From the NCBI GenBank assembly GCA_016906335.1, contig JADEYG010000004.1:1426001-1490000 (forward strand): a stretch of 64,000 nucleotides of DNA. Reading direction: 5' to 3'. Origin of the DNA: Novakomyces olei (lineage: Eukaryota). Of the stretch, positions 1,838 to 27,725 are shown one piece after another (position 1 is the first letter of the stretch; each line of letters starts with the position of its first letter). The notes under the pieces were generated by a model. The model ran no database searches and was not told where the DNA came from. It saw nothing but the letters and a program-made list of their open reading frames with translations. The position numbers and the translations under genes are program-made.

Positions 1838-1881
1838 TTCTATTGAATGAAACCAATCGAACAGTGTTTTTAATTATTAAA

Positions 1882-2630
1882 CTAATAAAGAGTATTCAAA
1901 AATCCTGGTTGCTGTTTTCCGCTCTCCAAGTGTTTGTGATAATCTCTTTCAACTTTATCCGGATCTTCTCCTTTGTAAAGTCGAACCTTAAATTCGTCCT
2001 CCACAGTATTGTCCAGCAAGTATTTAGTTTTATTTCTTTTGTGTAGCTCTTGTATTCTGTCAGCTACCAATTTGTTGTAGGTCTCTTCGTACTTCAGCCT
2101 AGCTGCTGCCTTGCTCGTCCAATGAGCCTGCTTTCGGAAAATTTCTTCCTCGGTTATAGGCGTTCGAATGACTGGAGTTGGAGCCTGAGCCTCGACTAAG
2201 GCTGGTGGTGCGACGGCAATTGGCGTTGGAGCTTTGTTGACTTTGGGGGGCTTTGGAAAAGGTCGCAATGCCGCGTCAACAGCTCTCTGAAGTCCACTTT
2301 GTTTTCGCTCTTTGAATGCCTCCGATCGGCGAGCGTTTCTTTGTCTTCTCTTTGACAATTGTAAAGTCAAGTTGTCAGAAGATGTTGCAGGAGACGGTGT
2401 ACACTGATCGGTTGATCCAGATTCAGTGACGTAGTCCTCCACTACAGGAATATGATGTGGGCGGTCTTGTCCTGCCTGCACCTTGTTCCTGGGTGGATCT
2501 GTCTTTGCCTGACGCAAAAGATTTGCGCAAGGCTCAGAATAGATTCTCCTGTAAATCCGTCGGTTTTTTCCAGACGGTTGCACTGACGATGTTAGCAGTG
2601 AAAAAATATGTTAAGTGAGGATTACTCACT
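1882..2630 (-). CDS. B1 ORF0 (~233 aa, unknown function); ATG predicted from A2630 + TG 2582-2581 after removing intron 2583-2629
   Basis: Homologous to the ORFs at 4172-4882 and 6327-6998. Intron signals GTGAGT...GCTAAC...CAG. Confidence 0.78.
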
Positions 2631-2947
2631 GTTGTAACAATATAAATTAGACCTAGCTAAGAGATCTATCTTTTAGACTATGGGAAGTTGGGTCCTTTTA
2701 TAGACTTTTTGTGAAGCAGATAGGACGGAGATAGGAAGGAAATAGGAAGGAAATGATGAGTAATGATGATGAATCATTGATGAGTAATGATGACTCATTG
2801 ATGAGTAATGATGATGAATCATTGATGAGTAATGATGACTCATTGATGAGTAATCAATCTTGATTAGATTTGATTAGATCAATCTTGATTAGATTTGATT
2901 AGATCAATCTTGATTAGATTTGATTAGATCAATCTTGATTCCTAACA
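2609..2947 (-). repeat. B1 5' LTR with internal tandem repeats (GATGAGTAATGATGA; TCAATCTTGATTAGATTTGATTAGA)
   Basis: TGTTAGG...TTAACA termini, TATAAAA at 2702-2696, U5 motif shared with B2/B3. Confidence 0.85.
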
Positions 2948-3594
2948 CATTTCAGTCATCTTTGTCAGTGAGGCATGTCCTTGACTTCTGTGAATATCAT
3001 AGCCATTATGTTTAGACAAATTAAAAACAGAAGTAGCTTTTAGCAATCCAGAAATATAAAATTCGCCATTTGATGAGCGCATAATGCTCGTCAGGAATTT
3101 TCCTTTTCGTTGAATTTCAAGATTTTCGAAGTCAACTTTTAGATTATTATCCAGTAGAAGACCAAGAGAAATTAGATTGCAAGGTGCATTCTCAACGTAG
3201 CAGACATTATAGATTGTTGCCTCTTTGCCATTGAGAACTATCTCAATGTCACCTTGTCTGTCCGCAGTAATACTTTGTCCATTGGCTATTTTTAATGATT
3301 TTTTAATTAATTTTATATTAACAAGCCAATCCAGACGATTTGTAATATGTACGCCAGCTCCAGAATCAATAACAAATGTAGCGCTATCACTTTCAGTAGG
3401 CTCAGTTTCATTTGTTGCATAGTCATTATTAAGTCTCGCCATTAATGCTATTTTTTCAGTATCCTTTTTTGTATTTTTCTTCTTTAAAAACCAGCATTGT
3501 TTGACAGAATGACCAGGCTTCTTGCAATAAGAGCATTTGACCTTTTTATTATTATTTCCAGCATAATTGACCACTTTAGAAGGTTCATCCCCTT
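2948..3594 (-). pseudogene. Ty1/Copia polyprotein fragment: CCHC knuckle, protease, pre-integrase. Continues in frame from 31537-32155.
   Basis: CSYCKKPGHSVKQC, FVIDSGAGVHIT, IHRSQGHAS. TSD CCCTT at 3590-3594 and 31532-31536. Confidence 0.88.
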
Positions 3595-3792
3595 TGTTAT
3601 AACTGTGGAAATTACTCACTGTTATAACTTTTAGATTAATTAAATCTACCCTTAAACTATGGAAAACCTTGTCCTTTTATAGACGTCAAGGCTCAGCTCT
3701 TATCTTCGTAATTTGCCAAGAGATAGGATTAAGACTTTCCTATCAATTAGTAATCAGATAGGATCAGAAGTGACCGATCAATTAGTAATCAC
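3595..3792 (-). repeat. Partial B2-type LTR (U5/R side), inverted
   Basis: Reverse complement of 3955-4152; ends at ATCAC against the start of the next LTR. Confidence 0.9.
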
Positions 3793-4152
3793 TGTTAGGC
3801 CATAGTGTAGATAGTAAAATTAAAATTAAAAATGACATAATTAAATTAAATTAATTCACTCCAAATACGGAATCTAACCGATTTGGAGGAATATTTAATT
3901 ACTGATCATTAAATCAAGCCACTGATCGGGTATCTGTATCCTATCAATGATAAGGTGATTACTAATTGATCGGTTACTTCTGATCCTATCTGATTACTAA
4001 TTGATAGGAAAGTCTTAATCCTATCTCTTGGCAAATTACGAAGACAAGAGCTGAGCCTTGACGTCTATAAAAGGACAAGGTTTTCCATAGTTTAAGGGTA
4101 GATTTAATTAATCTAAAAGTTATAACAGTGAGTAATTTCCACAGTTATAACA
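3793..4152 (+). repeat. B2 5' LTR
   Basis: TGTTAGGCC...TTATAACA, TATAAAA 4066-4072, matches copies at 31040 and 31207-31531. Confidence 0.92.
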
Positions 4153-4882
4153 ACTTTTTTCACTGCTAACATTGTCAGTGAATCCGTCAGGAGACAGCCG
4201 ACGGCCTCGCATTGTCTACTCTGAGACATTTGCAAATCTCTTGAAGCAGGCAAAAACCGATCCAAAGGTTGTTGTCTCGGCTGGCTCTATCCGCCGAAGC
4301 AATACACCTAAGGATAAGGATAAAACCTCTGTGTCTGGACTTACCGACCAGAGTGCCCACTCAGAGAAAAATACCTCGATTCATCAATTGAATAAGAGGA
4401 AAGAAAGAAACGCTCGCCGATCGCAGGCATTCAAAGAGCGTAAACTCAACGGTCGAATTTCCAAGGGGCCTGAATCAATTGCTGCTATTGCGGCAAAGGT
4501 GCTCAGAAAACCTCCTCCACCAGCGCCGAGACTTGGTCCTTACCCAGCTCTTACAGCTCCTTCAGTTTCGCCGGCCACTATTTCTACTACAACTCCTCGT
4601 TTACCTCTATCAGCGGAAGAAGTTTTTCGAAAACAAGCGCACTGGACAAGCAAAGCGGCGGCCAATCTACGTTACGAGGAAACATACAACAAATTGGTGG
4701 CCAATCGCATTCAAGAGCTACACAATAGGAAGAAAACAAAATATCTTCTGGAGAACATCGTTGAGGACAGATTCAAAATTCGTCTCTACAGAGGAGAAGA
4801 TCCAAACAAAGTTGAGAAGGATTATTACGATCACTTGAAAAGTGGACAGCAATCACCAGCGTTTTCGAATACTTTGTATTAG
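4127..4882 (+). CDS. B2 ORF0 (~234 aa); ATG predicted from A4127 + TG 4179-4180 after removing intron 4128-4178
   Basis: ACA|GTGAGT...GCTAAC attgt CAG|TG AAT CCG; conserved in three copies. Confidence 0.78.
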
Positions 4883-4948
4883 TCTTTTATATTTAATATA
4901 TTTAATTCTTTATCAATTTAATTTAAATTGATTAAAATATATTTTAAT

Positions 4949-5978
4949 ATGGACTTCAAAATCAAGCTGCCTGAACCAGCAAAGCTGAATGGTCATTCAA
5001 TGACCCATAGGGAGTTCCAATCATGGAGAGGCTCTATGGTTAAATGGCTGACATATGTCAAAGCAGGAGGCAGTGTCACCGGGATTTCAGATATAGACTT
5101 AATTAGCATGTTCCTCGAATCGAACGCTACAATCTATGCTGAAGAACTCAGGGACAATGCTGGTGTAACGACAGATCAGATGCTTGATCATCTGGAGCGA
5201 AGCATTGTACCCAACGACTATTTACCACGCGCTTACAGCAAGTTTGTTACCTTCGCTCAAGGAACAAAAAGCATTAGCCAATATGCCACGCAACTTAAAT
5301 TGAAATCAATGGAACTAGAAATAGTTAACGAAGCCATCTTGATTCAACAATTCATCCATGGGCTAAATGAGAGAACAAAGCCTCAAATAATGGGATCTTT
5401 GAGAAGTGCATTTGGAAACCAGTCGGGAAACAACACAGGAATGACGAAATGGAAATGGCAAAGTGTGGTTGATGTGGCAACAGGCTACGATTTTACTGCA
5501 ACAAGACCATACGTAGGAAACATGAATCCTAAACAAGGCAACCAACAAACTGAAACAAAGGCAACTACTTCTGAGAAGAAAGAACCAGAGAAGCCAGCCC
5601 TCAGAACAAGATGTACCTTTTGTCGCCGCACTGGGCACACGTACGAGCAATGCTTTAAACGAAAGAATCAATCAACCATCAGTGCTCTTAAAGAAGATTC
5701 TGGAATAGTTAGCGAAGAAATCAAACTTGATTACAATTGTTCTGCTGTCCAAAACACAAACCAACAATTTCTAGTTAATTTACCTGTGGAAATAAATGAT
5801 GAAGAAATCAAATGTCAGGTCCTGATTGATACTGGAAGTGATATTGACGTTATTGACTCAAACTTTTGCAATGTTCACCGACCAACATACAAAGAAAGTG
5901 ACCACAAAATTCAAATGGCCTTTCAAGGATCGAAAACTGTGAGCAGATATATGGCCAAAGTCATGTTCAAGGGGAGCG
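4949..5978 (+). CDS. B2 gag (capsid, CCHC knuckle) plus protease, interrupted by B3
   Basis: CTFCRRTGHTYEQC, VLIDTGS; resumes at 20892 (ELNCAVARL). Confidence 0.9.
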
Positions 5979-6301
5979 TGTTAGGAGTGTAGATAATAAA
6001 TAATTAAACATTGAATTACTTAAAGGGTCCTAAACGTGTACGGATTAAAATTAAACATTGAATTACTTAAAGGGTCCTAAACGTGTACGGATTAAATCTG
6101 GAACCTCGGCATTTGATTAATAATTAATCACGCCATAGCGGAAGCTGACTCATGATTAGTCAAGGCTGACTCATAATTAATCACGCCATTTCGGGCTTTC
6201 GGACTACAGGAGTCTATAAAAAGGACACGGTTTCCCATAGTTTAGAACATAGTTTTTTCTATCTTTTAATTTATTTGTTACAACAGTGAGTTACCCTCAC
6301 A
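5979..6301 (+). repeat. B3 5' LTR
   Basis: TGTTAGGAG...CCCTCACA; lacks an 18-bp palindromic segment present in the 3' LTR. Confidence 0.92.
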
Positions 6302-6998
6302 CATTTTTTCACTGCTAACTAGGACAGTGACTCCCCCGTCTGGACAACGCCGACGGATTTACCCTCACGTTTTCTCTGAGCCTTTTGCAAATCTTTTGCG
6401 TCAGGCGAAAACTGATCCTCCTAAGGATAAGGTGTTGACTGGATATTGCCGTCAATACCCGGAGTCCAAGGAGCGAAAACAAAACTCTGAGTCTGGACCT
6501 GCCGACCAGAGTGTTCGACCCTCTTCCAGCTTGACTCTTCAGCTGTCGAAGAGAAGAGAAAGAAACGCTCGCCGTTCAGAGGCCTTCAAGGAGCGTAAGA
6601 GAATTGAAACGGTTTCTAAACCATTTGCAACACCTCGTCCGAAACCACTTCCAACCCCGATTCCGGCCCCGCTTCCGAAACCAGTTCCAGCACCAGTTCC
6701 AGCACCAGTTCCAAGATTACCGCTTACGGAGGAAGAAATATTTCGAAAAGAAGCTCATTGGACAAGCAAGGTTGCGGCTCAAATCAAATACGAGGACACC
6801 TACAATAATCTTGTGGCCAAAAGAATTCAGGAACTGAGCAGGAAGAAAAAAACTAAGTATTTGCTTGACAACATCGTTGAGGACGAATACAGAATCCGTC
6901 TTTTTAAAGGAGAGGATCCAGACAAAGTTGAAAAGGACTACTACGAACATTTGGAACAAGGACGACAAAAGCCAGCCTATCTTAATACGCTTTTTTAA
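6285..6998 (+). CDS. B3 ORF0 (~223 aa); ATG predicted from A6285 + TG 6328-6329 after removing intron 6286-6327
   Basis: ACA|GTGAGT...GCTAAC tagga CAG|TG ACT CCC. Confidence 0.75.
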   Translation, partial: SELPSHIFSLLTRTVTPPSGQRRRIYPHVFSEPFANLLRQAKTDPPKDKVLTGYCRQYPESKERKQNSESGPADQSVRPSSSLTLQLSKRRERNARRSEAFKERKRIETVSKPFATPRPKPLPTPIPAPLPKPVPAPVPAPVPRLPLTEEEIFRKEAHWTSKVAAQIKYEDTYNNLVAKRIQELSRKKKTKYLLDNIVEDEYRIRLFKGEDPDKVEKDYYEHLEQGRQKPAYLNTLF

Positions 6999-7069
6999 AC
7001 TAGCTCATTAATTTGACTTAAATTTATTAATCTACTTTATTCATAAAATTAATTTAATTTTAATTAATT

Positions 7070-9326
7070 ATGGATTTTAAGATTAAATTACCTGAGCCTA
7101 CGAAATTGAATGGTCGCCCAATGACCCATAGAGAGTTCCAGTCATGGAGACACTCTATGGTAAAATGGCTCGCCTATGTCAAGACAGGCGAACATCCTAT
7201 TGCTATTTCAGATGTCGACTTGATTAGCATGTTTCTCGAATCAAATGCTTCGATCTATGCTGAGGAGCTCCGTGACAATACTTCTCAGCAAATCAAATGC
7301 TTGATCACCTTGAGAGAAGCATTGTTCCGAACGATTATCTACCTCGTGCATACAGCAAGTTTGTTACCTTCACTCAGGGCACAAGAAGCATTAGCCAATA
7401 TGCAACGCAGCTTAAGCTCAAATCAATGGAACTTGAGATAGTCAACGAGGCAATCTTGATTCAACAATTCATACATGGATTAAATGAAAGAACCAAACCT
7501 CAAATAATGGGATCATTGAGAAGTGCATTTGGAACTCAATCCGGTGATAGTTCGAACATGGCAAAATGGAATTGGCAAAACGTTGTTGATGTGGCTACAG
7601 GTTATGACTTTGCGACAGCAAGACCCTTTGTTGGAAATATGAGTACGAAAGCAGCCAGTCAGAGAATAGAGGCACGAGCTGATGTTCCTGAAAAGAGTGA
7701 ACCAGAGAAACCTATTCTCCGAACAAGATGTACTTTTTGTCGCAGAACTGGGCACACCTAGGAGCAATGTTTCAAAAGAAAGAATCAGTCAAGTGTGAGT
7801 GCTCTTCAAACAAGCACAGAAATAGATAACGAAGAAATAAAACTTGAGTATCACTGTTCCGCTGTCCAAAATACCGGTCAACAATTTCTTGTAGTCCTAC
7901 CAATTGATATAAACGGTAAAGAAATAAAATGTCAAATACTTATTGACACCGGGAGTGACCTTGACGTTATTGATTCGAACTTCTGCAATGTTCACCGACC
8001 AAAATACTATGAAAGTGACCATAAAATTGAAATGGCATTTCAAGGATCAAGAACTGTTAGCCGACACATGGCAAGAATAGGATTTAAGGGATATGAGTTG
8101 AATTGCGCAGTGGCAAGACTGAGAACCTCTGACCTTCTCATCGGAATGGGAACACTAAGCAAACTTGGAGCAATTGTCAATACCAGAAAGAGACAAATAC
8201 AATGGAAAAAAACAAGATAAACCATACGATTCAATATCACAAAAGGGGGCAGCCGTTGTAAGTTCAATCACAATTGATCCAAAGAAAAGGATTGATGTTC
8301 AGTCAGTTCGAGAACAAGACACAATTGACTCAAATAAGGTACTGGAAGTGCTACAAGACAAGTTCAAGCAAACTTTGGTAGCAAGTCCACCAAGCAAATT
8401 GCCTATAATGAGACCAGTGGTTGCAACATACGAGCCGATCGACCCACACAAGAAGTACAATATCAAAAAGTGGTATCCAAGCAAGAAACTAATGATGCCC
8501 TTAAAGCTGAAAATTGATGAACTTCTACACGCCAAAATGATATCAATTTCTACAGAAGAGCCAAGTGCCATATTATTTCCTATTCCTAAAGACAAAGACA
8601 TGGTCAACAAGCTCACAGATCCAAAAGAAATCAAGAATTATCTGCGATTTGTCAATGACGCTAGACCTCGGAATGCGAACATGAAACGCTTTTACATTCA
8701 GGTTCCTCGCATTGACATTGTAGTTCAAGATATTGCCAGAGCAAAATACAGAACTAAGATTGACTTGAAGGACGCTTTCTTCCAATCTAGAATACAGCCT
8801 GGGCAAGAACATTATACGGCATTTTGGACGCCATTTGGAATATACCAATGGAATGTGATGCCACAAGGAGATCGAAACTCTACTGCTATACAACAGCAGC
8901 TTATGGAGGAATTATTCAGACCCTACATTGGCATTTGGATGACAGTATATGTTGACGACATCATCATATACGATGACGATGTCCAGGAACACTTGGATCA
9001 CCTAGTGATTGTCTTTGGAATAATGTCTAAATGGGAACTATACGCTAGTCCAGCCAAGACCTTTCCATTCTGCAAAAGCTTTGTGGTACTAGGCAGACAG
9101 ATCAGTGATGAAGGAATCAAGATGACTGAAAAATCAAGAAACTCCATACTACGACTAGAAACTCCAAAGAACATGAAACAAATACAGAGACTGGTGGGCA
9201 TGCTAAACTGGATTTCAACGTTCATACCCAATTTATCGTCATACATCTCAACGTTCACTGAAATGAAGGAGTTTTCGTGGGATGAAACTAAGCAGAAAGG
9301 ATTTGACAAAATAAAGTCTGCAGTTC
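7070..9326 (+). pseudogene. B3 gag-protease-RT, with frameshifts (~7290, ~8210) and a stop (7759), interrupted by element A
   Basis: LIDTGS, KIDLKDAFFQ, MPQG, YVDD motifs. Confidence 0.9.
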
Positions 9327-9957
9327 TGTAAGACGGTCCTTACAGCTACAATCGCTGGAGGCCGGCCGTGTATAGTTTAAATAAAGTAAAGGAATAAGAA
9401 AGACCAGGAAAGCAGAAAGCGATTACTGTAAAGCTTACCAGGAGTAATATAATGTATTACTCCCACTTTGAGATAATCAACCCGTGAAGGGCGAGAGGCC
9501 TTCACGGGCAACTATAAACTAAACTAAGTTGCGGAGGAGCGGATGCTCCTTCGCATTCTAAACTACTCTTCCCAAACTAACTTATGCGAAGGTCGCACAA
9601 GTTAGAGCGGGAAGCTCTCAACCTAAACTAGACTATGGAAATAACTATGAATGTTCTCGCGCTAGCGGAGTGCGAAGGGTCGCACTCGCTAGCGTGCGAG
9701 AATGAGAACGGGAAGCGAGGTCCGTGCACATTGTGCATGGAGCCCCTCGCTCCCGTGGGCCAAGCTGGCTTAGTGCGCGTACCTACATGCGCACTAAGAC
9801 AACTTCTACGTCCCAAGACCATCGCATTACGCGCCGACTGGTCTTGGGCCGCGTTGGCGAAGCTTGCGACGCGCGGACATCCCAAGTCCGACTACAGGCG
9901 TCGCCCCTCGCTTCCCAACGCGGTTGTCAGGAACTCGCCAAGGCGAGGATCATGACA
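9327..9957 (-). repeat. A 3' LTR
   Basis: TGTCATGATCC...CTTACA on the minus strand. Confidence 0.95.
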
Positions 9958-10534
9958 GTATCCCCCCTCCCTTGGGCGAGGTCCCCGCGCCCGCAAAACA
10001 TAAAATATCCCAAAACAATAGTAAGGCGAAAATAAAAACAACAGATTTCCCAGCTTTCAACATAATAAGGAACATTGCAACTCTTCCACAGTCTTGTCTC
10101 AATAAAATAGCATGGGTAAATCAAATCAATCAATAAATGTTCGCATTGCCCTGCGTAAGGAAAGAAAATTAAAATGCGAGCACGAACACATGTAGACCAT
10201 ACTGTCTTCCAATTGCAAACCAAGTCGTCTCCCTGGTCAGTGTTGTCGTATCTCCTCCGTATAACGTGTGTATGTCGTGCGATAGAATAAACAATAGTCG
10301 CGTTCAATTTGTCAACGCCGTAAATGATTAAAGCGGTGTTAGCTTCATCGTTTTCGATTTTAATAATTTTTTTTTGCATGATTTTCAAAAAAGTTTTTTC
10401 CAAATAGCGATAAATAACTAGTGCGAATTGTGTATTATATCGCAGTCGTAAACAAAAATCAAGAGTTGAGTCTCGCGATTGCGTAAGATTACGTGAGTTG
10501 AATGACGTAACCTGTATCGCGATTAACGTAAACA

Positions 10535-13500
10535 TCATAGCTTCGGCTTAGCCGGGTGTAATCTGTGAAATTCTTTCACTAAATCGTCGCAATTTGTCAA
10601 ATTGCCTGCCGGCTCCCAAGTGCGATTAGCACTATCGTATCCCTTCCAATGTACGAAATATTCCAATTTGTTTCTTCGCTTCCTTGAGTCCAACACTTCC
10701 TCTACCTCCCACTCTGGTGTATTCTCGATAATTATTGGTGGTGGTGGTGCTGTCTGCTGTCGCACAATCGTAGACGTAGACTTGTACGATTCCAATAAAG
10801 AAGCATGGAATACTGGATGTATTCTCATCGTGTTCGGTAAATCCAACTTGTATGCACGTAAACCGATACGTTTCAAGATTGTAAAGGGTCCAATCTTCTT
10901 GTAATCTAACTTGTCGCTTGGCCTAGTGGTACTGATGTTCTTTCTCACTAGCCATACTTTCTGACCGACTTCAAAATCCTTGTCGACACGGTGCGTATTA
11001 GCAAACCGTGCTTGATCGCTAATGGCATGTTTGATTTCAATCTGTAAAAGGCGATGTAGTGTTCGCAAGAAATCAATCCGATTGTCCGCCGATGGACATT
11101 GCCGTGCTGTTGCTATCGTAAAACGGCATTTGGGGTGATACCCATATAAAGCGTAACTAGGCGTCGCTTTTATTGATGATTGCTCAGTATTGTTATATGC
11201 GAACTGTGCAAAAGGTAGCAAGTTTACCCAATTCGTTTGTTGGTAATTGCTGTAAATTCTCAAATATTGCTCGAGGCTCTGATTAAGCCTTTCCGTTTGT
11301 CCATCGCTCTGGGGATGGTACGCAGTTGATAACCTTTGCTTGATATCACAATGTGCGAGTAAATGCTTCGTAAAATGTGATACGAAAACTGATCCACGAT
11401 CTGAGATAATTTCTTCTGGCAGTCCAAAGTTAGCAAATACTCTGTGAGCGTATAGCAATGCTAGTTCTTTCGCGCTCATGGTCTCGCATATTGGTACAAA
11501 GATGCCTATCTTCGTAAAGCGACATACTATAACCCAAATTGAGTCGTAGTCTTTGCCTGTGATGACATCTCTTGACACCGGGAGCTTCACAATGAAGTCC
11601 ATAGCAATGCTTTCCCAAGGCTTTGTAGGTACTCGCAACGAATGTAATAGACCGTAGGGAGCATGATGCGATGATTTACTTCGTGCGCAAGTGTCGCATG
11701 ACTCCACATAGTTAAATACGTCCTTTCGCATCCTTGGCCAGTAATAGTTCCTTGTCACAAGCTCTAGCGTCTTAGCCTGTCCGGGGTGACCTGAAGTCTG
11801 CGAATCATGACATTCTTGCATGATTGATAATCGCAAATCGTTGTCTCTGGGTATGTAAATCAAACCCGAGAACATTAAAAGACCTTCCTTGTCCATTGTA
11901 TAATTCTCCAAATGAGCAGCATCGGGCTTGCTCTTTAACTCCTCAATAATATTTTTGCAAATGCTGTCCTTCTCGTAGCATTTCTTAACATCCTGTGCTA
12001 GCGTTTTGTTGTCCTCAATCGCAAACACAAATTGCGATTTGTCCAAAAGCACCATTGTTCGTTCTGGCTTTTCCTCCTCTTCGCTGCTAACGTAATCGCT
12101 TCTTCGCGATAAGGAGTCAGCCTTGTGGTTAAACTTTCCCGCACGATACACGATCACAAAATCGTAAGACGCAAGTAACTGCGACCAGCGCATTTGCCGT
12201 CTATTCAGGACACGCGCGGTCCAAAAGTACACAAGATTGCGATGATCCGTGTATATCGTGGTTTTGTGAAGGGGACTCTCCAAGTATACCCTCCATTCCC
12301 GAAGACATACAACAATAGCTAATAGCTCCTTGTCGTGAATGTCGTAGTTCGTCTCTGCGCTTGTCATCTTGCGCGAGTAAAATGCGATTGGTCTCATGTC
12401 GCCGTTTTCATCCTTTTGCGAAAGGATCCCGCCTATCGCAAAATCTGAGGCGTCCGTTTCCAAGAAGCTCGGCTTTTGTGGATCGAAGTGCACAAGAATA
12501 GGTGCGCCTAAGAATGCATCCTTCAACGCATTGAATGACTCCCTGCATTCGTCGCTAAACACGAACTTTGTATCCTTCTTTAAAAGCCGGGTAAGAGGTG
12601 CCGTAATCTTGCTGTAGTTGGCGATGAATCTTCGGTAATAGTTCGCCAGTCCCAGGAACGACATAACCTCCTTAACATTCTTTGGCTCGGGCCATGTTTC
12701 AATCGATTTGACCTTCGTATTTTCCATCGACACACCTTTCGTTGAAATCACGAAGCCAAGAAACTCCGTTGTGTCGGTATGGAATTCGCATTTCTCCAAT
12801 TTGACAAATAAATTTGCCTTGCGAAGTCTCTCCAATACTCCGCGCACGTGCTCCACGTGTTCTTCCTCTGTATTTGAGTAAATCAGTATATGTCCAAGTA
12901 AACGACAACATATCGATCCAGGCAATCTCGCAAAGTGTCGTTGGCGAGTGCTTGAAACGAAGCCGGGGCATTCGTAAGCCCAAACGGCATGACTTGGTAC
13001 TCGTAGTGGCCGTACCTCGTACGAAAGGCCGTTTTCCATTCGTCGCCTTTTCGTATCCTAACCAAATTATATGCACCGCGAAGATCCAGTCGCGTAAAAA
13101 TAGTTGCTTGGCGAATGCGATCTAGAAGTTCGGATATAAGCGGTAATGCATATCTGTTTTTGACAGTGATTGCGTTCAGACCGCGATAGTCAACGCATAA
13201 TCTAAGCGATCCATCTTTCTTTTTGACAAATAAGATCGGCGCCCCCGCGGGCGACGACGACGGTCGTATAAAACCTTTAGCGAGGTTTTCCTTGATATAA
13301 TCTCTCAGCGTTTGCAATTCGCGTTCGGCGAGCGGGTAGATCGGACCAAAAGGCGGCTTTGCATTTTCGGCCAAGGGTATCGCATGATCCCAAGGTTGAT
13401 GTTTCGGCAAAACGTCCGCGTTCTTCTTCTCAAATAGGTCGCGATATCCCTCGTAGAACCCAGGCAATGTAACGCGAGGCTTGATATCTTGCTCGTCCGT

Positions 13501-14082
13501 TGCGTACACACATAAAATACCTGATTCTCCATTACGAGCCAATCTTGCAAATTCGGTTGCGCTGACTTGCATGAATTCGGATAATGTACTGCACTTCAAA
13601 CAGTTCGCCAAACAGTAGTTCGACTTAAACTCGACGTTTGCGCGACTCCATCCGATCGTAGTCTCATGCTTGTCCAACCATGGCTTGCCCAAGATAGCAT
13701 CGTATCCACGAAGAGGTATGACATTGAAGGTCATCCTTTCTCGATGTTCGCCAATTGATATATCCATCTCGCTGGTGTGAAAGCGAATACCTCCTGACTT
13801 GATTGTCCTTCCATCAACGACTCTGATGGGCTCGGTCTCGCTCTTCTCCGTAAGCTTAATAAAAGCATGCGATGCGAGCTTCTCGCTGATAAAATTAGAG
13901 GTAGCTCCTGAGTCAATCAGGGCTCTCGCGTTCAACTCTCCATCCTCTGTCTTGACTTTCACGACGACAGTCAGATGCTTTGCTTTGTCCGGTTCCGTAA
14001 AAACTGTCATAACTTCTGGTGGCCTAAATTGTTGTTTGCCCAGATCAGGCCTTTTCATTGGACCTGGGCGTTCGCTTTTCCC
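10535..14082 (-). CDS. A pol: protease, RT, RNase H, integrase, chromodomain (small frameshift at ~12890)
   Basis: [52 protein letters not shown]...TWEP. Confidence 0.93.
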
Positions 14083-14987
14083 AAATCGGAAAATTCGTGC
14101 GTGAATGCAGCGACGTGTTGCTGATTGTACGTCTTCTTCTTCTGCTTGCATTCTCTTGCTCGATGACCCACGCGTCCACAGTTAAAGCATTTGATGTTGC
14201 TTTTGCGATGGTTGTCATCTTCCTTTTCTAAACTAATCGCGTCCACATCCATAGGAGTAAAACTTGTACTCGCGTTTGCAGCCGGGCGGTTGTTGGAATA
14301 TTTCACGGAACCGCGGCTTGCACTCTCGATGTGCCTGTCGGATATTCTTCCATCCACGCGAACTGAAATCTCAATCATTTCATTCAAAGTGCGGGGTCTG
14401 TCCATCCTGGAAAGCTCATCCTTGATGCGATCCTTCAGCCCCTGATAATACATGAACGTCAGCGCACTGTCATTGAAATCCAAGTACGAAGCAATTCTTT
14501 GAAAAATGCTCGCATAAGATGCTGCTGATCCACGTTGTCTCAAGGCGGCTAACTCTCTTTGCGCCTGACTCACCCTGTCGACCTTGCCGAAATTCGCGGC
14601 CAACGCTTCGCAAAAGGCTTCAAAAGTAGGTACTACCGAAGCGAAGTCGTTGTCGCGAAGGTGTGGTTCGAACCACGCAAATGCGGCGTCCCGCAAATAC
14701 GAAGCTGCGAACAAAACCTTCGAACGCTCGTCGCGAAACTCGTGCGGTTTCAACATGATGTAAAGGCGAAGCTGCGCCAAAAAATTCTCGACCATTCTGC
14801 GGTCCCCACGAAACGCGTCGGGCTTCATCACCGCTGGTCCGTCACTCGTCGGAGCTCTCTTAGCTCGCGAACCGATCTCCTGGGTCAGATGCGCAATGTG
14901 CGATCGCCCTTTCTCGTTCTCTGCCTTCAACTCGGCAATCTGAGCTTGCAGGGATTGCAAAAAGGTGTTAAGCTCCTCTTGCGACAT
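14055..14987 (-). CDS. A gag
   Basis: [38 protein letters not shown]. Confidence 0.93.
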
Positions 14988-15322
14988 CTTGTCTCTCGTA
15001 CCGCAAAACTCGTAATCGTAATCGTTCTTCCAGAACCGTTCTTCGTAAATTGTTCACTCAATCGTCGACTATCCAAGCCGATACTCAATAACTCAAAATA
15101 ACTGTGTTTCACCGGAACACTCGATAACTCAAAATTCTCAAACTCGAATCCACGTCCTTCCTCGACGCTTTAACCGTTTTAACTTCCGTAAAAATCCGTA
15201 AAAATAAGTACCGAACCGCGTCTTTGACTCGACGTCCGAAACTCTCTCGAATCCGAAGGAAATAAAACACAAACAATTCCAAAAAACTTCAAACTTCAAC
15301 GACCGGGACGGGTTGATTATAG

Positions 15323-15952
15323 TGTAAGACGGTCCTTACAGCTACAATCGCTGGAGGCCGGCCGTGTATAGTTTAAATAAAGTAAAGGAATAAGAAAGAC
15401 CAGGAAAGCAGAAAGCGATTACTGTAAAGCTTACCAGGAGTAATATAATGTATTACTCCCACTTTGAGATAATCAACCGTGAAGGGCGAGAGGCCTTCAC
15501 GGGCAACTATAAACTAAACTAAGTTGCGGAGGAGCGGATGCTCCTTCGCATTCTAAACTACTCTTCCCAAACTAACTTATGCGAAGGTCGCACAAGTTAG
15601 AGCGGGAAGCTCTCAACCTAAACTAGACTATGGAAATAACTATGAATGTTCTCGCGCTAGCGGAGTGCGAAGGGTCGCACTCGCTAGCGTGCGAGAATGA
15701 GAACGGGAAGCGAGGTCCGTGCACATTGTGCATGGAGCCCCTCGCTCCCGTGGGCCAAGCTGGCTTAGTGCGCGTACCTACATGCGCACTAAGACAACTT
15801 CTACGTCCCAAGACCATCGCATTACGCGCCGACTGGTCTTGGGCCGCGTTGGCGAAGCTTGCGACGCGCGGACATCCCAAGTCCGACTACAGGCGTCGCC
15901 CCTCGCTTCCCAACGCGGTTGTCAGGAACTCGCCAAGGCGAGGATCATGACA
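15323..15952 (-). repeat. A 5' LTR
   Basis: Matches 9327-9957 apart from a 1-nt indel seen by eye. Confidence 0.95.
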
Positions 15953-15957
15953 AGTTC

Positions 15958-16686
15958 AGCAAGACATAATACTCAAGCCATTTAACCCAGAGCCTCTGAA
16001 CAATGGAACAGAGAAATTATTCATGGGAATAGATGCCTCTCTAGTGGGCACTGGAGGTTGGCTAGGTCAAGGAAAAGAATGGCAAACATGCAGAATAATT
16101 GGGTTTACCTCTAAGAAACTTGGAATAGCAGAATCCCACTATCCAGTTCACGAACTTGAATATCTAGCATGCATCAGAGCATTGGAGCATTTCGAAATAT
16201 ATGCTAGAGGATATCAGGTAAATTGTTTGACAGACAATAAAGCATTAAGTCGTCTTCTTTACTCGAAGAACGTTATGCTGTCGCGACGTCATCTACGATG
16301 GATGGATTTTTTGAATGAATTTGACATCAATATTATACACGTGCCAGGAACACTTAACGTCTTAGCAGACTTATTGTCACGCTCTCATTCACACTCAAAG
16401 GTCGCTGCAATCTCTATTGAACAAACTCCAAATACAGATATAGATGAAGAGATACAAAATCTCTATCTCAAGGATACACATTGGGCAGAAATACTCGCAA
16501 TATTGAAAAGCAATGAAGAAAATCCAGATACCGAAAAACTTAAATCAAGATATTATCTCAAAGATAATCTCATTCACCTCAAATTTGATGACCGAATCTG
16601 TATTCCTTCAGGCTTCACAAACAAGATAATACAAGAACTTCATGACACATATCAAGGAGGACATGGAGGAATAAATAAGACAATAG
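15958..16686 (+). pseudogene. B3 RNase H region (first copy of a tandem RT-RNase H duplication)
   Basis: GIDASLVGTGG, ELEYLA, TDNKAL; repeated at ~17628-18356. Confidence 0.88.
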
Positions 16687-19574
16687 TCCACCAAGCAAAT
16701 TGCCTATAATGAGACCAGTGGTTGCAACATACGAGCCGATCGACCCACACAAAAAGTACAATATCAAAAAGTGGTATCCAAGCAAGAAGCTAATGATGCC
16801 CTTAAAGCTGAAAATTGATGAACTTCTACACGCCAAAATGATATCAATTTCTACAGAAGAGCCAAGTGCCATATTATTTCCTATTCCTAAAGACAAAGAC
16901 ATGGTCAACAAGCTCACAGATCCAAAAGAAATCAAGAATTATCTGCGATTTGTCAATGACGCTAGACCTCGGAATGCGAACATGAAACGCTTTTACATTC
17001 AGGTTCCTCGCATTGACATTGTAGTTCAAGATATTGCCAGAGCAAAATACAGAACTAAGATTGACTTGAAGGACGCTTTCTTCCAATCTAGAATACAGCC
17101 TGGGCAAGAACATTATACGGCATTTTGGACGCCATTTGGAATATACCAATGGAATGTGATGCCACAAGGAGATCGAAACTCTACTGCTATACAACAGCAG
17201 CTTATGGAGGAATTATTCAGACCCTACATTGGCATTTGGATGACAGTATATGTTGACGACATCATCATATACGATGACGATGTCCAGGAACACTTGGATC
17301 ACCTAGTGATTGTCTTTGGAATAATGTCTAAATGGGAACTATACGCTAGTCCAGCCAAGACCTTTCCATTCTGCAAAAGCTTTGTGGTACTAGGCAGACA
17401 GATCAGTGATGAAGGAATCAAGATGACTGAAAAATCAAGAAGCTCCATACTACGACTAGAAACTCCAAAGAACATGAAACAAATACAGAGACTGGTGGGC
17501 ATGCTAAACTGGATTTCAACGTTCATACCCAATTTATCGTCATACATCTCAACGTTCACTGAAATGAAGGAGTTTTCGTGGGATGAAACTAAGCAGAAAG
17601 GATTTGACAAAATAAAGTCTGCAGTTCAGCAAGACATAATACTCAAGCCATTTAACCCAGAGCCTCTGAACAATGGAACAGAGAAATTATTCATGGGAAT
17701 AGATGCCTCTCTAGTGGGCACTGGAGGTTGGCTAGGTCAAGGAAAAGAATGGCAAACATGCAGAATAATTGGGTTTACCTCTAAGAAACTTGGAATAGCA
17801 GAATCCCACTATCCAGTTCACGAACTTGAATATCTAGCATGCATCAGAGCATTGGAGCACTTCGAAATATATGCTAGAGGATATCAGGTAAATTGTTTGA
17901 CAGACAATAAAGCATTAAGTCGTCTTCTTTACTCGAAGAACGTTATGCTGTCGCGACGTCATCTACGATGGATGGATTTTTTGAATGAATTTGACATCAA
18001 TATTATACACGTGCCAGGAACACTTAACGTCTTAGCAGACTTATTGTCACGCTCTCATTCACACTCAAAGGTCGCTGCAATCTCTATTGAACAAACTCCA
18101 AATACAGATATAGATGAAGAGATACAAAATCTCTATCTCAAGGATACACATTGGGCAGAAATACTTACAATATTGAAAAGCAATGAAGAAAATCCAGATA
18201 CCGAAAAACTTAAATCAAGATATTATCTCAAAGATAATCTCATTCACCTCAAATTTGATGACCGAATCTGTATTCCTTCAGGCTTCACAAACAAGATAAT
18301 ACATGAACTTCATGACACATATCAAGGAGGACATGGAGGAATAAATAAGACAATAGCCGGTGTTGCGCGGACTTATTATTGGCCAGCAATGGCAAAAGAA
18401 ATTAAGGACTATGTGAAGTCGTGCGAGACGTGTGCTAAGAGCAAAATTACACCTCACAAGCCCATTGGTTTACTACAAGAGCTGAACATACCAAAGGCTC
18501 GATGGGAAACCATTGGAATGGATTTCATTACTGGGCTTCCTTTATCTGGAAAGGAAAAATACGATGCAATAATTTGTATTGTTGACCGACTCACCAAACG
18601 CGCACATTTTTGGCCAACACACACAACTATAACCGCTGAAGGCACAGCAGCTCTATTCTTGGATCGATATTTCTGCCTACATGGTCTACCAAAAATAATT
18701 ATTAGTGACCGAGATGTCAGGTTTATGTCAGAGTTTTGGACACAACTCACAAAGGTTCTTGAAGTCAAACTCAAACCATCATCAAGCTATCACCCACAAA
18801 CAAATGGGCAAACGGAAAGAACAAACAGGGTTCTCGAAGATTACCTACGCCTATTTACATATGCCAATCGTAACAACTTCACATGGCACAAATTGCTTTC
18901 GTTTGCAGAATTCTTCTATTCCTCAAGCAAACACTCTGCTATCTCGATGACTCCATTTGAAGCTGACCTAGGATACAATCCAAGAAGCTTAAGTGATCTT
19001 GCAATATCTATTCCACAAAGTCAAGACAATTCATCATTCCTTGAAACTCTAGCAGCTAATCAAATACTCTGTCAAGATGCCATAAGAGCCGCACATGACT
19101 TATCAAAGATTTATGCAGACAAAAACAGACTCAACATTGAATATGAAGTCAACGACTATGTATACCTGAGTACTGCAAACATTCGAGAAATACCTGAACT
19201 ATTTCAACATGACTTGACCAGAAAACTTCAATCCAAATACATTGGACCATACAAAATTGTTAAAAAGGTCAGTCCAGTGGCATATGAACTGGAACTACCC
19301 ACAAATTTAAAATATCATTCAGTTGTTCATATCTCACAACTCAAAAAGCACAATGCAATGACTGAACAGAACGAACGTGAACAACCAAAACCAAAAGCTT
19401 TGCGACGCTATAAAGATAATACAGAACTTTATGCTATACAAAGCATAGTTGACCACGCTTGGTTCAGAGCTGACAAAAAGTCTACAACACCTAAAAAAGG
19501 CTACACCTTACTTTACCGAGTTCGCTGGGAAGGATACAATCCTGAGGAAGACACATGGGAGCCAAAACAACACC
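16687..19574 (+). CDS. B3 pol: RT, RNase H, integrase, chromodomain (interrupted at the chromodomain end; completes 20482-~20570)
   Basis: YVDD, zinc-binding H...H...CETC, SDRD, HPQTNGQTER, KYIGPY, YRVRWEGY...TWEP. Confidence 0.93.
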
Positions 19575-20476
19575 TGTGAGGGTAACTCACTGTTGTAACA
19601 AATAAATTAAAAGATAGAAAAAACTATGTTCTAAACTATGGGAAACCGTGTCCTTTTTATAGACTCCTGTAATGGATTAATAATTCATTGTCCGAAAGCC
19701 CGAAATGGCGTGATTAATTATGAGTCAGCCTTGACTAATCATGAGTCAGCTTCCGCTATGGCGTGATTAATTATTAATCAAATGCCGAGGTTCCAGATTT
19801 AATCCGTACACGTTTAGGACCCTTTGAGTAATTCAATGTTTAATTTTAATCCGTACACGTTTAGGACCCTTTAAGTAATTCAATGTTTAATTATTTATTA
19901 TCTACACTCCTAACATCCTCCCCCACTAATTCGAGATGTGTCGAATTGTAGTTGTCAAGGAGTTGTCTGGAATGTAGTAGGTGTTGTTTTGGCTCCCATG
20001 TGTCTTCCTCAGGATTGTATCCTTCCCAGCGAACTCGGTAACGTAAGGTGTAGCCTTTTTTAGGTGTTGTAGACTTTTTGTCAGCTCTGAACCAAGCGTG
20101 GTCAACTATGCTTTGTATAGCATAAAGTTCTGTATTATCTTTATAGCGTCGCAAAGCTTTTGGTTTTGGTTGTTCACGTTCGTTCTGTTCAGTCATTGCA
20201 TTGTGCTTTTTGAGTTGTGAGATATGAACAACTGAATGATATTTTAGATTTGTGGGTAGTTCCAGTTCATATGCCACTGGACTGACCTTTTCAACAATTT
20301 TGTATGGTCCAATGTATTTGGATTGAAGTTTTCTGGTCAAGTCATGTTGAAATAGTTCAGGTATTTCTCGAATGTTTGCAGTACTCAGGTATACATAGTC
20401 GTTGACTTCATATTCAATGTTGAGTCTGTTTTTGTCTGCATAAATCTTTGATTATTTATTATCTACACTCCTAACA
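19575..20476 (-). mobile_element. Internally deleted B3-family mini-element (26 bp of 5' LTR + pol 3' end + PPT + full 3' LTR) inserted antisense into B3 chromodomain
   Basis: TSD ACACC at 19570-19574 and 20477-20481; LTR 19575-19915; LTR stub 20451-20476. Confidence 0.85.
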
Positions 20477-20545
20477 ACACCTACTACATTCCAGACAACT
20501 CCTTGACAACTACAATTCGACACATCTCGAATTAGTGGGGGAGGA

Positions 20546-20886
20546 TGTTAGGAGTGTAGATAATAAATAATTAAACATTGAATTACTTAAAGGGTCCTAA
20601 ACGTGTACGGATTAAAATTAAACATTGAATTACTTAAAGGGTCCTAAACGTGTACGGATTAAATCTGGAACCTCGGCATTTGATTAATAATTAATCACGC
20701 CATAGCGGAAGCTGACTCATGATTAGTCAAGGCTGACTCATAATTAATCACGCCATTTCGGGCTTTCGGACAATGGATTATTAATCCATTACAGGAGTCT
20801 ATAAAAAGGACACGGTTTCCCATAGTTTAGAACATAGTTTTTTCTATCTTTTAATTTATTTGTTACAACAGTGAGTTACCCTCACA
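20546..20886 (+). repeat. B3 3' LTR
   Basis: Follows PPT gggggagga, ends CCCTCACA. Confidence 0.92.
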
Positions 20887-20891
20887 GAGCG

Positions 20892-22377
20892 AGTTAAATT
20901 GCGCCGTTGCAAGACTTAGAACTTCTGATCTATTGATTGGCATGGGAACACTAAGTAAGCTTGGGGCAATTGTGAACACTCGCAAACGACATATACAATG
21001 GCAGGACGATGCAAATGAAAGAAGGTTTGTCAAGCCAGAAGTACTTCCTGTAGTCAGCTCAATAACAATTGATTACAACAAGAGAATTGAAGTCCAACAA
21101 GTTACAAATGAGGACTTGGTTGACCCAGAAAAAGTACTGCAGATACTTCAAGACAAGTTTGATCAAACTTTGATCAAGGATCCTCCAAGCAAGTTGCCTA
21201 TAATGAGACCTGTGGTTGCTACATATGAGCCAATTGATCCAGAAAAAAGGTATAACATAAAAAGTGGTACCCAAGCAAAAAGCTTATGTTGCCTCTGAAA
21301 GTAAAGATTGATGAGCTTTTAGAGGCAAAGATGATCTCAATCTCTAGCGAAGAACCTAGTGCAATATTGTTTCCAATTCCCAAAGACAAAGAAATGGTTA
21401 ACAAGCTAACAGATCCTAAAGAAATAATTAAATATTTGAGATTTGTTAATGATGCTCGACCTCGCAATGCAAACATGAAGCGTTTCTACATTCAAGTACC
21501 ACGTATTGACATAGTTGTACAAGACATTGCCCGAGCAAAATACAGAACTAAGATTGATTTGAAGGACGCTTTCTTTCAATCAAGAATACAACCCGGACAG
21601 GAACACTACACGGCATTCTGGACACCATTTGGGATATATCAGTGGAACGTCATGCCTCAAGGAGATCGTAATTCCACTGCTATACAGCAACAACTTATGG
21701 AGGAGCTCTTCAGACCTTACATTGGAATATGGATGACAGTCTATGTCGATGACATAATAATATATGACGATGATGTCCAAGCACATCTGGACCATCTGGT
21801 GCTAGTTTTTTGTATTATGTCAAAGTGGGAACTATACGCGAGTCCAACCAAAACATTTCCGTTTTGCAAGAACTTTGTTGTGCTGGGGAGACAAATTAGT
21901 GATGAAGGAATCAAAATGACTGATAAATCAAAAAACTCCATACTGCGACTGGAACCACCAAAGAATATTAAGCAAGTACAAAGATTGGTTGGAATGCTGA
22001 ATTGGGTTTCAACGTTCATACCAAACTTATCCTCTCACATTTCAACATTCACTGAGATGAAGGATTTTTCTTGGGACGAAACAAAACAAAAAGGCTTTGA
22101 TAAAGTCAAGAAAGCAGTTCAGCACGACATAGTACTTTCACTATTTGACCCTGAGCCCCTGAATAATGGTACAGAAAAACTATTCATGGGAATAGATGCT
22201 TCACTAGTTGGTACAGGTGGATGGCTAGGACAAGGACAAGACTGGAGAAAATGCAGAGTAATAGGCTTCACGTCGAAAAAATTAGGGATAGCTGAATCAC
22301 ACTATCCTGTACATGAACTTGAATATCTTGCATGCATACGAGCTCTTGATCATTTTGAAATATATGCTCGAGGTTAC
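20892..22377 (+). pseudogene. B2 protease end, RT, RNase H start (frameshift ~21260), interrupted by C
   Basis: YVDD, DASLVGTGG; close paralog of B3 pol. Confidence 0.9.
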
Positions 22378-23082
22378 TGTCATGATCCCCGCCTCGCGTG
22401 AACCACGACAGCGAACGACGCCTGAAGTCCTGTAGCGCCAAAGGCGATGACTTCAGGCTAGATAGATCTAAATAGCTCGCGCGAGGTAATGTTGGACATT
22501 ACTCGCGCGAAGCGCGTAAGTGGCCTAGCTCGCGAGCAGGTTGGACCTGGCTCGCGCGAAGCAGGTCCACGTCCATGCCCGCGCGACGTAGGCACGTCGC
22601 GGCGCATGACAGTAGTAGTAGCGATCGCGCATCGCTACGAAGCTAGATAGATCGATCCATAGAGTTCATAGCTCGCCACCGCTTTCCCAATGCGGATGGT
22701 CTGGGACCATCGCATTGAGATCGTGGTGGGATGAGGCTTAGGCCGCGAAGTGGCTAAGCGAGCCGCTAAGCCTCATAGGATAGTCTACATAGTCGCCCAT
22801 GGAGAGAACTCTCTCCACGGGCTTATAATCTCAAAGTTGCTACATAACCTTGTAGCAGGTAAGCTTTAGAGAAGCGCCGTCGCCTTTTCAAGGACAACGT
22901 CCTTTTCCTTTTCCTTAGTTCTTGCGCCGGGCGCAAGTCTACGTTCCCGTTTCTCGGTACTCGCTTCGCGCGGTACCCGATTGAACTTCCTTTGTCGAGC
23001 GGTCTCGCAAAGGACAGTCCGTGTTCGCCTGTAGCGACACGCGAGTTTACACCGCGGTGCTCCCCTCTAAGGGCCACCTACA
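22378..23082 (+). repeat. C 5' LTR
   Basis: TGTCATGATCC...TACA. Confidence 0.95.
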
Positions 23083-23251
23083 CTATTATAAGCCGTGAGC
23101 TCGTCTAAGCTACAGATTTACACGGCGTTGAAAGGTGTCACGCACGGAGGCGTACACAAATTTCGATTTACAAGTTTTATTTCGCACTAAGTTGTTGCGA
23201 CGAAGGGTGCTTTGCTACGGTTTAGCAGCACAAACGAATTATTGAATTACG

Positions 23252-27100: not shown

Positions 27101-27725
27101 GTTTTACGCTTTTTACGGCTACAACCCGAAATGTCGCTTTACGATTTCATCTTCGCGACAATGCCCATCCGCGGATGAACGTATCGAATACCTACGGAAT
27201 CTACATCGCTTATTGAAAGTCGAAATCGAAAAGTCTCTCAGCGACCAGGCGCGCTTTGCAAATGAGCATCGCGTCGACAAAAGTTTTGCTATTGGCGATC
27301 AAGTCTGGCTAGTGCGAAAAAATATTAGCACTACGCGGCCATGCGATAAGCTGGATGCCAAGAAGCTGGGACCGTTTAGGATTATCGCACGCGTTGGTTT
27401 GCGTGCATATCGCTTGGAACTATCGAAGGCAATGCGTATACATCCTGTCTTCCACGCTTCATTGCTAGAGCGACATAACGCAGTGTCGCAGATCGCGCGA
27501 GAACAGATCGCGCCACCACCTCCAGTTATATTGGATGCTAACCCGGAATGGGAAGTCGAGCAAGTTCTAGACTCGCGCATCCGACGCAAGCAACTTCAAT
27601 ATTATGTGCATTGGAAAGGCTACGACGCCTCCGACCGCACGTGGGAGCCTGCGAAACATTTACACAACTGCATGGATTTGGTAAACGAATTCCACCGTGC
27701 ACACCCGAACAAACCTGGTTCTTAA
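24175..27725 (+). CDS. C pol: protease, RT, RNase H, integrase, chromodomain (entered by -1 frameshift; 1-nt indel at ~26620)
   Basis: [38 protein letters not shown], chromodomain. Confidence 0.93.

Follow-up and report, generated by a model that had tools for sequence, protein, structure and literature searches.

How do ribosomes reach the gag start codon of a retrotransposon when a further complete coding frame lies between the promoter and gag? The question is raised by a family of long terminal repeat (LTR) retrotransposons, family B, in Novakomyces olei. The DNA analysed is a stretch of 64,000 nucleotides (nt) of this fungal genome (assembly GCA_016906335.1, contig JADEYG010000004.1, positions 1,426,001 to 1,490,000 of the forward strand), referred to as the window; positions given below count from its first letter. 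Nested LTR retrotransposons occupy the first 31 kb. Family B is a fungal Ty3/gypsy chromovirus, and its leaders were studied in three copies, B2, B3 and B1, all from the window. Each copy carries an open reading frame (ORF), ORF0, between the LTR and gag. An original prediction, made from the letters of the sequence, had stated that ATG is absent from the whole interval between the TATA box and the gag ATG. It attributed this to selection that lets scanning ribosomes cross ORF0 and start at gag on unspliced RNA, and took it as independent support for a splice switch.

Absence of ATG from the leaders

The leader was defined as the interval from the TATA box through the base preceding the gag ATG, which is thus the triplet directly after each interval. 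The leaders of B2, B3 and B1 contain no ATG in any frame (Table 1), as originally claimed. The expectation from base composition is 14.6, 13.5 and 13.7 ATG (B2, B3 and B1, respectively), so that the earlier figure of about 13 per copy holds. Dinucleotide-preserving shuffles are a stricter null than base composition, as the AT and TG content is retained. In 5000 such shuffles of each leader the mean was 8.8, 6.5 and 9.2 ATG, and a count of zero was obtained in none, three and one of the 5000, respectively. When ATG was compared with the other triplets on the three leaders of the window, it was the sole triplet of the 64 missing in all three. Its reverse complement CAT was near expectation (9, 9 and 11 observed versus 14.5, 9.5 and 12.5 expected), and this speaks against a mutation bias that is symmetric between the strands, e.g., repeat-induced point mutation (RIP). 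All nine near-cognate triplets were at or above expectation, none was depleted, and the dinucleotide TG was present 32 to 36 times per leader without once being preceded by A. The full ATG-free runs extend past the TATA boxes and cover 1002 nt in B2 (3948-4948), 918 nt in B3 (6153-7069) and 940 nt in B1 (2776-1838, minus strand). On either strand of the window no other ATG-free run is as long, the next one having 687 nt. The gag and pol frames of the elements hold 23-29 ATG per kb, and 5.1-5.4 % of all single substitutions would produce an ATG. A variant of the B2 leader in DNA run X2 was only partly seen, with 57 further differences over the whole compared region outside the listed changes; among the listed changes, none of the 16 substitutions and neither of the two insertions creates an ATG. 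Selection against ATG in the leaders is supported by these sequence counts, because the depletion is specific to ATG, affects coding and non-coding sequence of the leader alike and has lasted in three lineages with a divergence of about 30 %.

As a separate observation, the leaders of B3 and B1 lack GGG, of which 6.0 and 6.9 are expected, and that of B2 has it three times (7.7 expected); CCC is low in B2 as well.

Two other young element families in the window, unrelated to family B and without ORF0, were compared. Family C (9327-15952, minus strand, nested inside B3) has LTRs of 631 nt with 99.8 % identity, family D (22372-29273, plus strand) LTRs of 708 nt with 99.6 % identity, and their gag starts are related to each other (MSQEELN... 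and MSQEDLN...). No ATG is present over the 335 nt after the LTR in family C, within an ATG-free run of 564 nt, nor over the 172 nt after the LTR in family D, within a run of 453 nt. This fits scanning as a general rule for gag in this genome. An ATG-free leader is in itself ordinary here; a gene purged of AUG within the leader is not.

ORF0 as a coding frame without methionine

Internal methionine is lacking in all three ORF0 proteins. The original prediction had stressed their strong divergence, and indeed the B3 and B1 proteins are only 56-58 % identical to that of B2. The frame is open in all copies despite this amino-acid divergence of 42-44 %. The pairwise dN/dS ratio (non-synonymous to synonymous substitution rate) is 0.14-0.29, with 0.25-0.29 for B2 versus B3 and B1, at saturated dS values of 1.3-2.0. 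Constraint is strongest over the C-terminal 90 residues, where the corresponding ratio of proportions, pN/pS, is 0.18-0.28. Of the 15 listed ORF0 substitutions in the variant of DNA run X2, 10 are synonymous and five non-synonymous. Judged from these substitution patterns, ORF0 is a real coding frame.

Methionine accounts for 3.5-3.6 % of the residues in gag and pol of the same elements versus none in ORF0. Among the 30 stop-to-stop ORFs of at least 200 amino acids (aa) in the window only three are without methionine, and all three are ORF0. Out-of-frame ATG were considered by two randomizations. With the protein fixed and the synonymous codons redrawn according to the ORF0 codon usage, 1.7-3.5 ATG are expected, and the probability of zero is 0.10, 0.06 and 0.015 for the three copies. 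Permutation of the codon order leads to an expectation of 3.8-5.5 ATG and a probability of zero of 0.002-0.012. Since the synonymous sites are saturated, the three out-of-frame zeros are close to independent.

The spacers that follow (B2 4880-4948, B3 6996-7069 and B1 1884-1838, minus strand, all counted from the ORF0 stop codon; 47-74 nt) are extremely AT-rich with TATAT- and AATAAA-like runs, and might carry a polyadenylation site for a short ORF0 messenger RNA (mRNA). Read-through from ORF0 into gag was considered and dismissed. The gag ATG shares the frame of ORF0 in B2 but, at a distance of 740 nt, not in B3, and there are stop codons in between.

Predicted leader intron and split start codon

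Without an ATG of its own, ORF0 needs another start, and a conserved junction offers one. A short intron is predicted near the start of each leader with the layout AACA/GTGAGT ... TTTTTTCACTGCTAAC ... CAG/TG, in which the slashes mark the splice sites. GTGAGT, the 16-mer TTTTTTCACTGCTAAC and CAG are invariant in the three copies. The predicted junction reads A/TG, in the frame of ORF0 and with A at position -3, in three of three copies. It is the only possible AUG of ORF0, and exon 1 holds no ATG. The intron lengths differ by numbers that are not multiples of three, yet ORF0 is in frame throughout. A strict short-intron pattern was found at four sites in both strands of the window (128 kb), three of which are the leader introns; the intron of one host gene in the window is comparable in size, at about 55 nt. 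RNA runs X6, X7 and X8, which carry the same species label, yielded 3, 0 and 0 reads, with each read less than 90 % alike and only in part on the stretch; the reads were unusable.

The window holds three exact copies of the 16-mer, one in each leader, versus 0.07 expected by chance. Comparison of LTR copies with different flanks placed the LTR end inside the predicted intron and the 16-mer 2 nt further in each copy; in B2, the final 25 nt of the 5' LTR form the first part of the intron. From this position the 16-mer is a putative primer-binding site (PBS). It does not start with TGG, has only a match of 6 bp plus 4 bp to an upstream GTTA..CAGTGA, and no transfer RNA (tRNA) gene is present in the window. 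In the self-priming chromoviruses of the Tf1/sushi type, the PBS pairs with the first 11 or so nt of the element's own transcript and not with the 3' end of a tRNA. Each predicted splice site, the donor as well as the acceptor, carries CAGTGA, the complement of the TCACTG found within the 16-mer (4124-4182, 6282-6331 and 2633-2579, minus strand), so that two mutually exclusive hairpins are possible; the downstream one was predicted by folding in B2 and B3. These hairpins could tune splicing or could belong to a self-priming structure.

As the GTGAGT donor lies inside the LTR, each 3' or solo LTR has an unpaired donor that faces the flanking DNA. Such donors were located at 20872 (3' LTR of B3) and, on the minus strand, at 19590, 31230 and 3617. 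They could splice into neighbouring host sequence.

Proposed translation of gag and ORF0

We regard it as probable that the unspliced RNA is scanned up to gag, whereas the spliced RNA gains an AUG at the junction and makes ORF0. Genomic RNA of retroelements doubles as gag-pol mRNA, and the full-length unspliced RNA of family B would serve in both functions. It would present no AUG ahead of that of gag, about 820-860 nt from the RNA start; a 40S subunit loaded at the cap would scan through all of ORF0 and initiate at gag. With the gag ATG as the first in the unspliced RNA, cap-dependent scanning is the simplest reading for gag. Excision of the 42-51 nt intron near the 5' end would join the final A of exon 1 to the TG of exon 2. 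The junction AUG, in a good context with A at -3, would then be the only AUG upstream of gag in the spliced RNA and would open ORF0, with an accessory protein of 223-234 aa as product. The price of such a double use of one sequence would be the loss of every methionine from the ORF0 protein and a codon choice that avoids out-of-frame ATG. As the predicted intron spans the LTR end and the PBS-like 16-mer, the ORF0 mRNA would be without the presumed site of priming and could not be reverse-transcribed. A wider interpretation, to which we give somewhat less than an even chance, is that an accessory gene may be kept in the leader in AUG-less form, hidden from scanning ribosomes and gene callers and turned on only via a splice-assembled start. 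With the PBS borne by the same intron, a single splice would commit the RNA to ORF0 and bar it from reverse transcription, and the CAGTGA/TCACTG/CAGTGA hairpins could set the ratio of the two RNAs.

Several points weigh against this reading. Both the splicing and the site where transcription begins are predicted from the sequence. With a folding energy of -232.6 kcal/mol versus -195.7 kcal/mol for its shuffles (z = -5.1, 20 shuffles), the B2 leader is the more stably folded; it is thus not an unstructured runway, and simple scanning would be hindered. If transcription began far behind the TATA box, only a few nt would be left for exon 1, and a junction AUG that near the cap would be read poorly. 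A full-length spliced RNA has more than 5 kb after the ORF0 stop, which would normally invite nonsense-mediated decay. The unspliced RNA has an in-frame GTG at the position of the junction, and in B2 a CTG and a TTG a few codons upstream. Given the protein, the out-of-frame depletion of ATG is modest per copy, as seen from the probabilities stated above for redrawn codons. Because of the common ancestry of the copies, their zero counts are not wholly independent. Finally, the sample consists of three copies from one window, of which two are defective downstream, B3 by a frame change and a stop in gag and B1 by truncation in gag. The original prediction is supported in part. Selection combined with scanning to gag is favoured by the ATG-specific depletion and by gag having the first ATG, and is weakened by the structure of the B2 leader. 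The support for a splice switch is real in that the A/TG junction supplies the start; it is not fully independent of the splicing question, because the absence of ATG fits a non-AUG start on unspliced RNA equally well.

Such a non-AUG start is, in our judgement, unlikely. ORF0 would then be initiated on the unspliced RNA, at the in-frame GUG of the would-be junction or at a CUG or UUG just upstream, while most ribosomes leak to gag; ATG would have been purged for the leaking ribosomes, and the intron signals would be conserved for a PBS or priming structure. Indeed the unspliced CAG/TG provides a GTG in the ORF0 frame in three of three copies, and the part of the B2 leader from the upstream stop (4148-4150) to position 4180 contains CTG and TTG in frame. 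The 16-mer is exactly at the expected position of a PBS, so its conservation needs no splicing, and the pairing of the CAGTGA at both "splice sites" with the TCACTG of the 16-mer could be a replication structure. Yet a GTGAGT donor, a CTAAC about 10 nt from CAG, a fungal intron length and an in-frame A/TG, all found in three copies about 30 % diverged, would be much coincidence. Furthermore, the context of the GTG is poor in B2 (T at -3), and near-cognate starts are usually weak.

We hold it for distinctly improbable that gag is expressed from a separate transcript starting in the AT-rich spacer or by internal ribosome entry, with ORF0 free of methionine for reasons of its own, e.g., avoidance of truncated products from internal starts. 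The very AT-rich 47-74 nt ahead of gag could hold promoter-like or unstructured entry sequences, and the degree of structure in the leader exceeds that of its shuffles. Left unexplained are the missing out-of-frame ATG, the missing ATG in the non-coding parts and the ATG-free leaders in two families without ORF0, C and D. Moreover, a gag-pol RNA starting after ORF0 would lack R-U5 and the PBS region and would therefore not be the genome. That the absence of ATG is a mere by-product of composition, of mutation bias such as RIP or of shared ancestry is hardly credible. The three copies are related, thus an ATG-poor ancestor may have been counted three times, and fungal repeat families can suffer RIP, which destroys TG. 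But even the dinucleotide shuffles still expect 6.5-9.2 ATG, CAT is not depleted, the TG are there and never follow an A, ORF0 is still open whereas RIP makes stops, and the adjoining gag and pol are rich in ATG; on these grounds RIP and compositional bias were rejected. As the synonymous sites are saturated, ancestry cannot have kept the out-of-frame sites free of ATG.

Relatives and predicted structure of ORF0

By sequence comparison ORF0 is an orphan. No Pfam family was matched at E <= 0.01, and at E <= 10 only two stray matches were obtained (E 0.11 and 0.16), each in one of the three members. No relative was found among 5.8 billion proteins, searched by a word index at near lengths, nor in a hidden Markov model search of 1.84 billion representative proteins of any length. 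Peptide patterns and the DNA pattern of the intron gave no match in metagenome contigs, and there was none in viral contigs or in the ESM Atlas; among the PDB sequences no relative was present at E <= 10. A basic region of the bZIP kind was considered for the stretch KRRERNARRSEAFKERK and rejected, as no bZIP family was among the Pfam matches even at E <= 10.

The structure prediction from the alignment of the three sequences was poor, with a mean pLDDT (per-residue confidence) of 55.8 and a pTM (global fold confidence) of 0.25. In this low-confidence model, helices are linked by disordered, proline-rich segments. The best-conserved parts of ORF0 are SEPFANLLRQAKTDP, the basic helix QLSKRRERNARRSEAFKERK and a C-terminal helical domain, and the protein is rich in basic and helical segments overall. 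As a guess by analogy, ORF0 may be a nucleic-acid-binding regulator in the manner of Rev and of CERV of the element Cer1 (PMC10309623).

Elements and genomic surroundings

The assignment of family B is based on LTRs and domains. The LTRs of B3 read TGTTAGG...CACA, i.e., they start with TG and end with CA, and GAGCG is present on either side; the start motif TGTTAGG is common to the LTRs of B2, B3 and B1. The gag of B2 matches Retrotrans_gag (E = 2.4e-8), and the pol ORF of B3 (16679-19579) contains RVT_1, RT_RNaseH, Integrase_H2C2, a Tf2-type SH3 domain (SH3_Tf2-1) and Chromo. The gag capsid domain, the order of the pol domains and the C-terminal chromodomain are those of a chromovirus. In the collection of 5.8 billion proteins the closest ones to the B3 pol are only 32 % identical, thus the lineage is poorly sampled. 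The leaders are pairwise about 66-73 % identical as DNA. All features are listed in Table 1.

Table 1. Positions of family-B features in the window
Feature	Positions	Strand	Remarks
B2 ATG-free leader	4066-4948	+	no ATG in 883 nt, any frame
B3 ATG-free leader	6215-7069	+	no ATG in 855 nt, any frame
B1 ATG-free leader	1838-2702	-	no ATG in 865 nt, any frame
B2 predicted leader intron	4128-4178	+	51 nt, GTGAGT...CTAAC...CAG; exon 1 ends with A4127, exon 2 starts with TG 4179-4180
B3 predicted leader intron	6286-6327	+	42 nt; exon 1 ends with A6285, exon 2 starts with TG 6328-6329; 16-mer 6304-6319
B1 predicted leader intron	2583-2629	-	47 nt; exon 1 ends with A2630, exon 2 starts with TG 2582-2581; 16-mer 2606-2591
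B2 invariant 16-mer TTTTTTCACTGCTAAC	4155-4170	+	2 nt past LTR end; contains the branch-point motif
B2 ORF0, exon-2 part	4179-4882	+	TG of the split start, 233 codons (4181-4879), stop 4880-4882; protein 234 aa
B3 ORF0, exon-2 part	6328-6998	+	protein 223 aa; stop 6996-6998; gag ATG 7070
B1 ORF0, exon-2 part	1882-2582	-	protein 233 aa; stop 1884-1882
B2 spacer, ORF0 stop to gag ATG	4883-4948	+	66 nt, very AT-rich, no ATG
B2 5' LTR (TGTTAGG...ACA)	3793-4152	+	TATA box 4066; ends from LTR copies with different flanks; end +/-1 nt
B2 gag-protease frame	4949-5978	+	begins at the first ATG of the unspliced RNA; interrupted at 5979 by B3, resumes at 20892
B3 5' LTR (TGTTAGG...CACA)	5979-6301	+	TATA box 6215; partner 3' LTR 20546-20886
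B1 LTR	2947 to about 2609	-	gag ATG 1837-1835; gag truncated near 1715

The first part of the B2 gag-protease frame encodes 12 methionines in 347 aa and has 28.8 ATG per kb. B3 as a whole (5979-20886) was inserted into this region, with GAGCG as a target duplication of 5 bp at 5974-5978 and 20887-20891. Its LTRs are about 94 % identical, i.e., differ by about 6 %, and are further distinguished by an indel of 18 nt, the longer form of which is also present in DNA run X2. In B3, gag is disrupted by a change of frame near 7285 and by a stop codon at 7759-7761.

Further arrangements were noted around the elements. An inverted copy of 199 nt of the 3' part of a B2-type LTR (3594-3792, minus strand) abuts the B2 LTR. 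It is joined straight to a zinc-knuckle and protease region of gag (2942-3593); leader, ORF0 and gag N-terminus are missing, which indicates an internally deleted element. A second odd joint, of U3 followed by an inverted LTR, is located at 31040-31368. At the window's left end, among fragments of elements, positions 590-720 and 1245-1430 hold telomere-like TTAGGG-variant repeats, a poly(A) of 42 nt and tandem CCTAGGATCCC(T/C)T repeats. Beyond the elements, a Pkinase_fungal gene, by which the host is recognised as a fungus, is found at 32895-35408 and a sugar transporter at 44293-45525, for which the nearest Atlas clusters are mostly from Ascomycota. The region 54376-57421 has a strong skew of G over C (up to 0.6) at low GC content and tandem repeats with a period of 15 nt; the block is duplicated at a spacing of about 2.4 kb.

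Comparison with known systems

The single parts of the proposed arrangement are known separately: scanning of AUG-free leaders, accessory proteins from spliced RNA, ORFs upstream of gag (PMC4408406) and fungal start codons that adjoin or are split by an intron (PMC13309789). Their combination, a retroelement leader gene that is purged of AUG and turned on via a splice-assembled start, was not found described in the searched literature. Nor did the search, outside of which were subscription journals and supplementary files, reveal a retroelement in which splicing assembles a start codon, or one with a leader gene purged of AUG.

If the proposal is true, the leader RNA of family B would be a compact eukaryotic RNA with two cistrons that manages without an internal ribosome entry site, reinitiation or frameshift. 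The upstream cistron would be purged of every AUG and gain one only through splicing. It would represent a new class of accessory gene in fungal LTR retrotransposons. Gene finders cannot call ORF0 as it has no ATG, and such genes would have been missed systematically; nothing like ORF0 is present in the 1.84 billion representative proteins. The purging of ATG would offer a purely computational signature for other scanned-through genes in the leaders of retroelements and viruses, and a natural read-out of the distance over which ribosomes scan.

Extra genes are known from several retroelements. The extra ORF "brtn" of Botrytis is reportedly an antisense gene and hence not the same thing as ORF0. 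The plant Tat/Ogre elements, also Ty3/gypsy, resemble family B in having an additional sense ORF between the 5' LTR and gag, in the account accessible of PMC4408406. According to the same account they are non-chromoviruses with PMD or Tr28 in the extra ORFs, whereas ORF0 has no Pfam domain and belongs to a fungal chromovirus; that text describes neither an AUG-free design nor a split start codon. Cer1, a Ty3/gypsy element of Caenorhabditis elegans, shares with family B a lineage-restricted accessory protein. A spliced RNA gives rise to its CERV, the unspliced one being genome and gag-pol mRNA, and no homologues occur outside of a narrow host group (PMC10309623); for ORF0, splicing is a prediction. 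In contrast to CERV, ORF0 is located wholly upstream of gag, has nothing in common with gag and would have its start codon built by the predicted splice. ORF0 also departs from the usual layout of accessory genes, an ORF downstream of or overlapping gag-pol with an AUG in exon 1.

Introns at start codons and protein pairs from spliced and unspliced RNA have been described in yeasts. In Yarrowia lipolytica, the 5' splice site of 42 introns immediately follows the A, the T or the G of a start codon (PMC13309789), and GCR1 of yeast gives rise to two proteins, one from the spliced and one from the unspliced RNA (PMC7826247). Unlike family B, these are cellular genes; in the descriptions at hand the intron does not choose between two cistrons, and no downstream cistron relies on an AUG-free upstream gene. 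Among viruses, env of avian leukosis virus and ORF IV of rice tungro bacilliform virus are expressed from subgenomic mRNAs that borrow an upstream AUG, and a donor in or near the leader decides on the cistron. In those two cases exon 1 holds a complete AUG, whereas family B has none in either exon. The leader of type 1 human immunodeficiency virus (HIV-1) is about 335 nt long. Similar to family B, it is a long leader from cap to gag with the PBS and the major splice donor and without an upstream AUG; inserted upstream AUGs lower expression from the gag start, which was taken as evidence for scanning (PMC3130279). The same absence of AUG, from the TATA box to gag, is found in three of three family-B copies. 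The HIV-1 leader is, however, non-coding, whereas the AUG-free stretch of 855-883 nt in family B holds a conserved gene, 223-234 codons in length, from which methionine has been purged.

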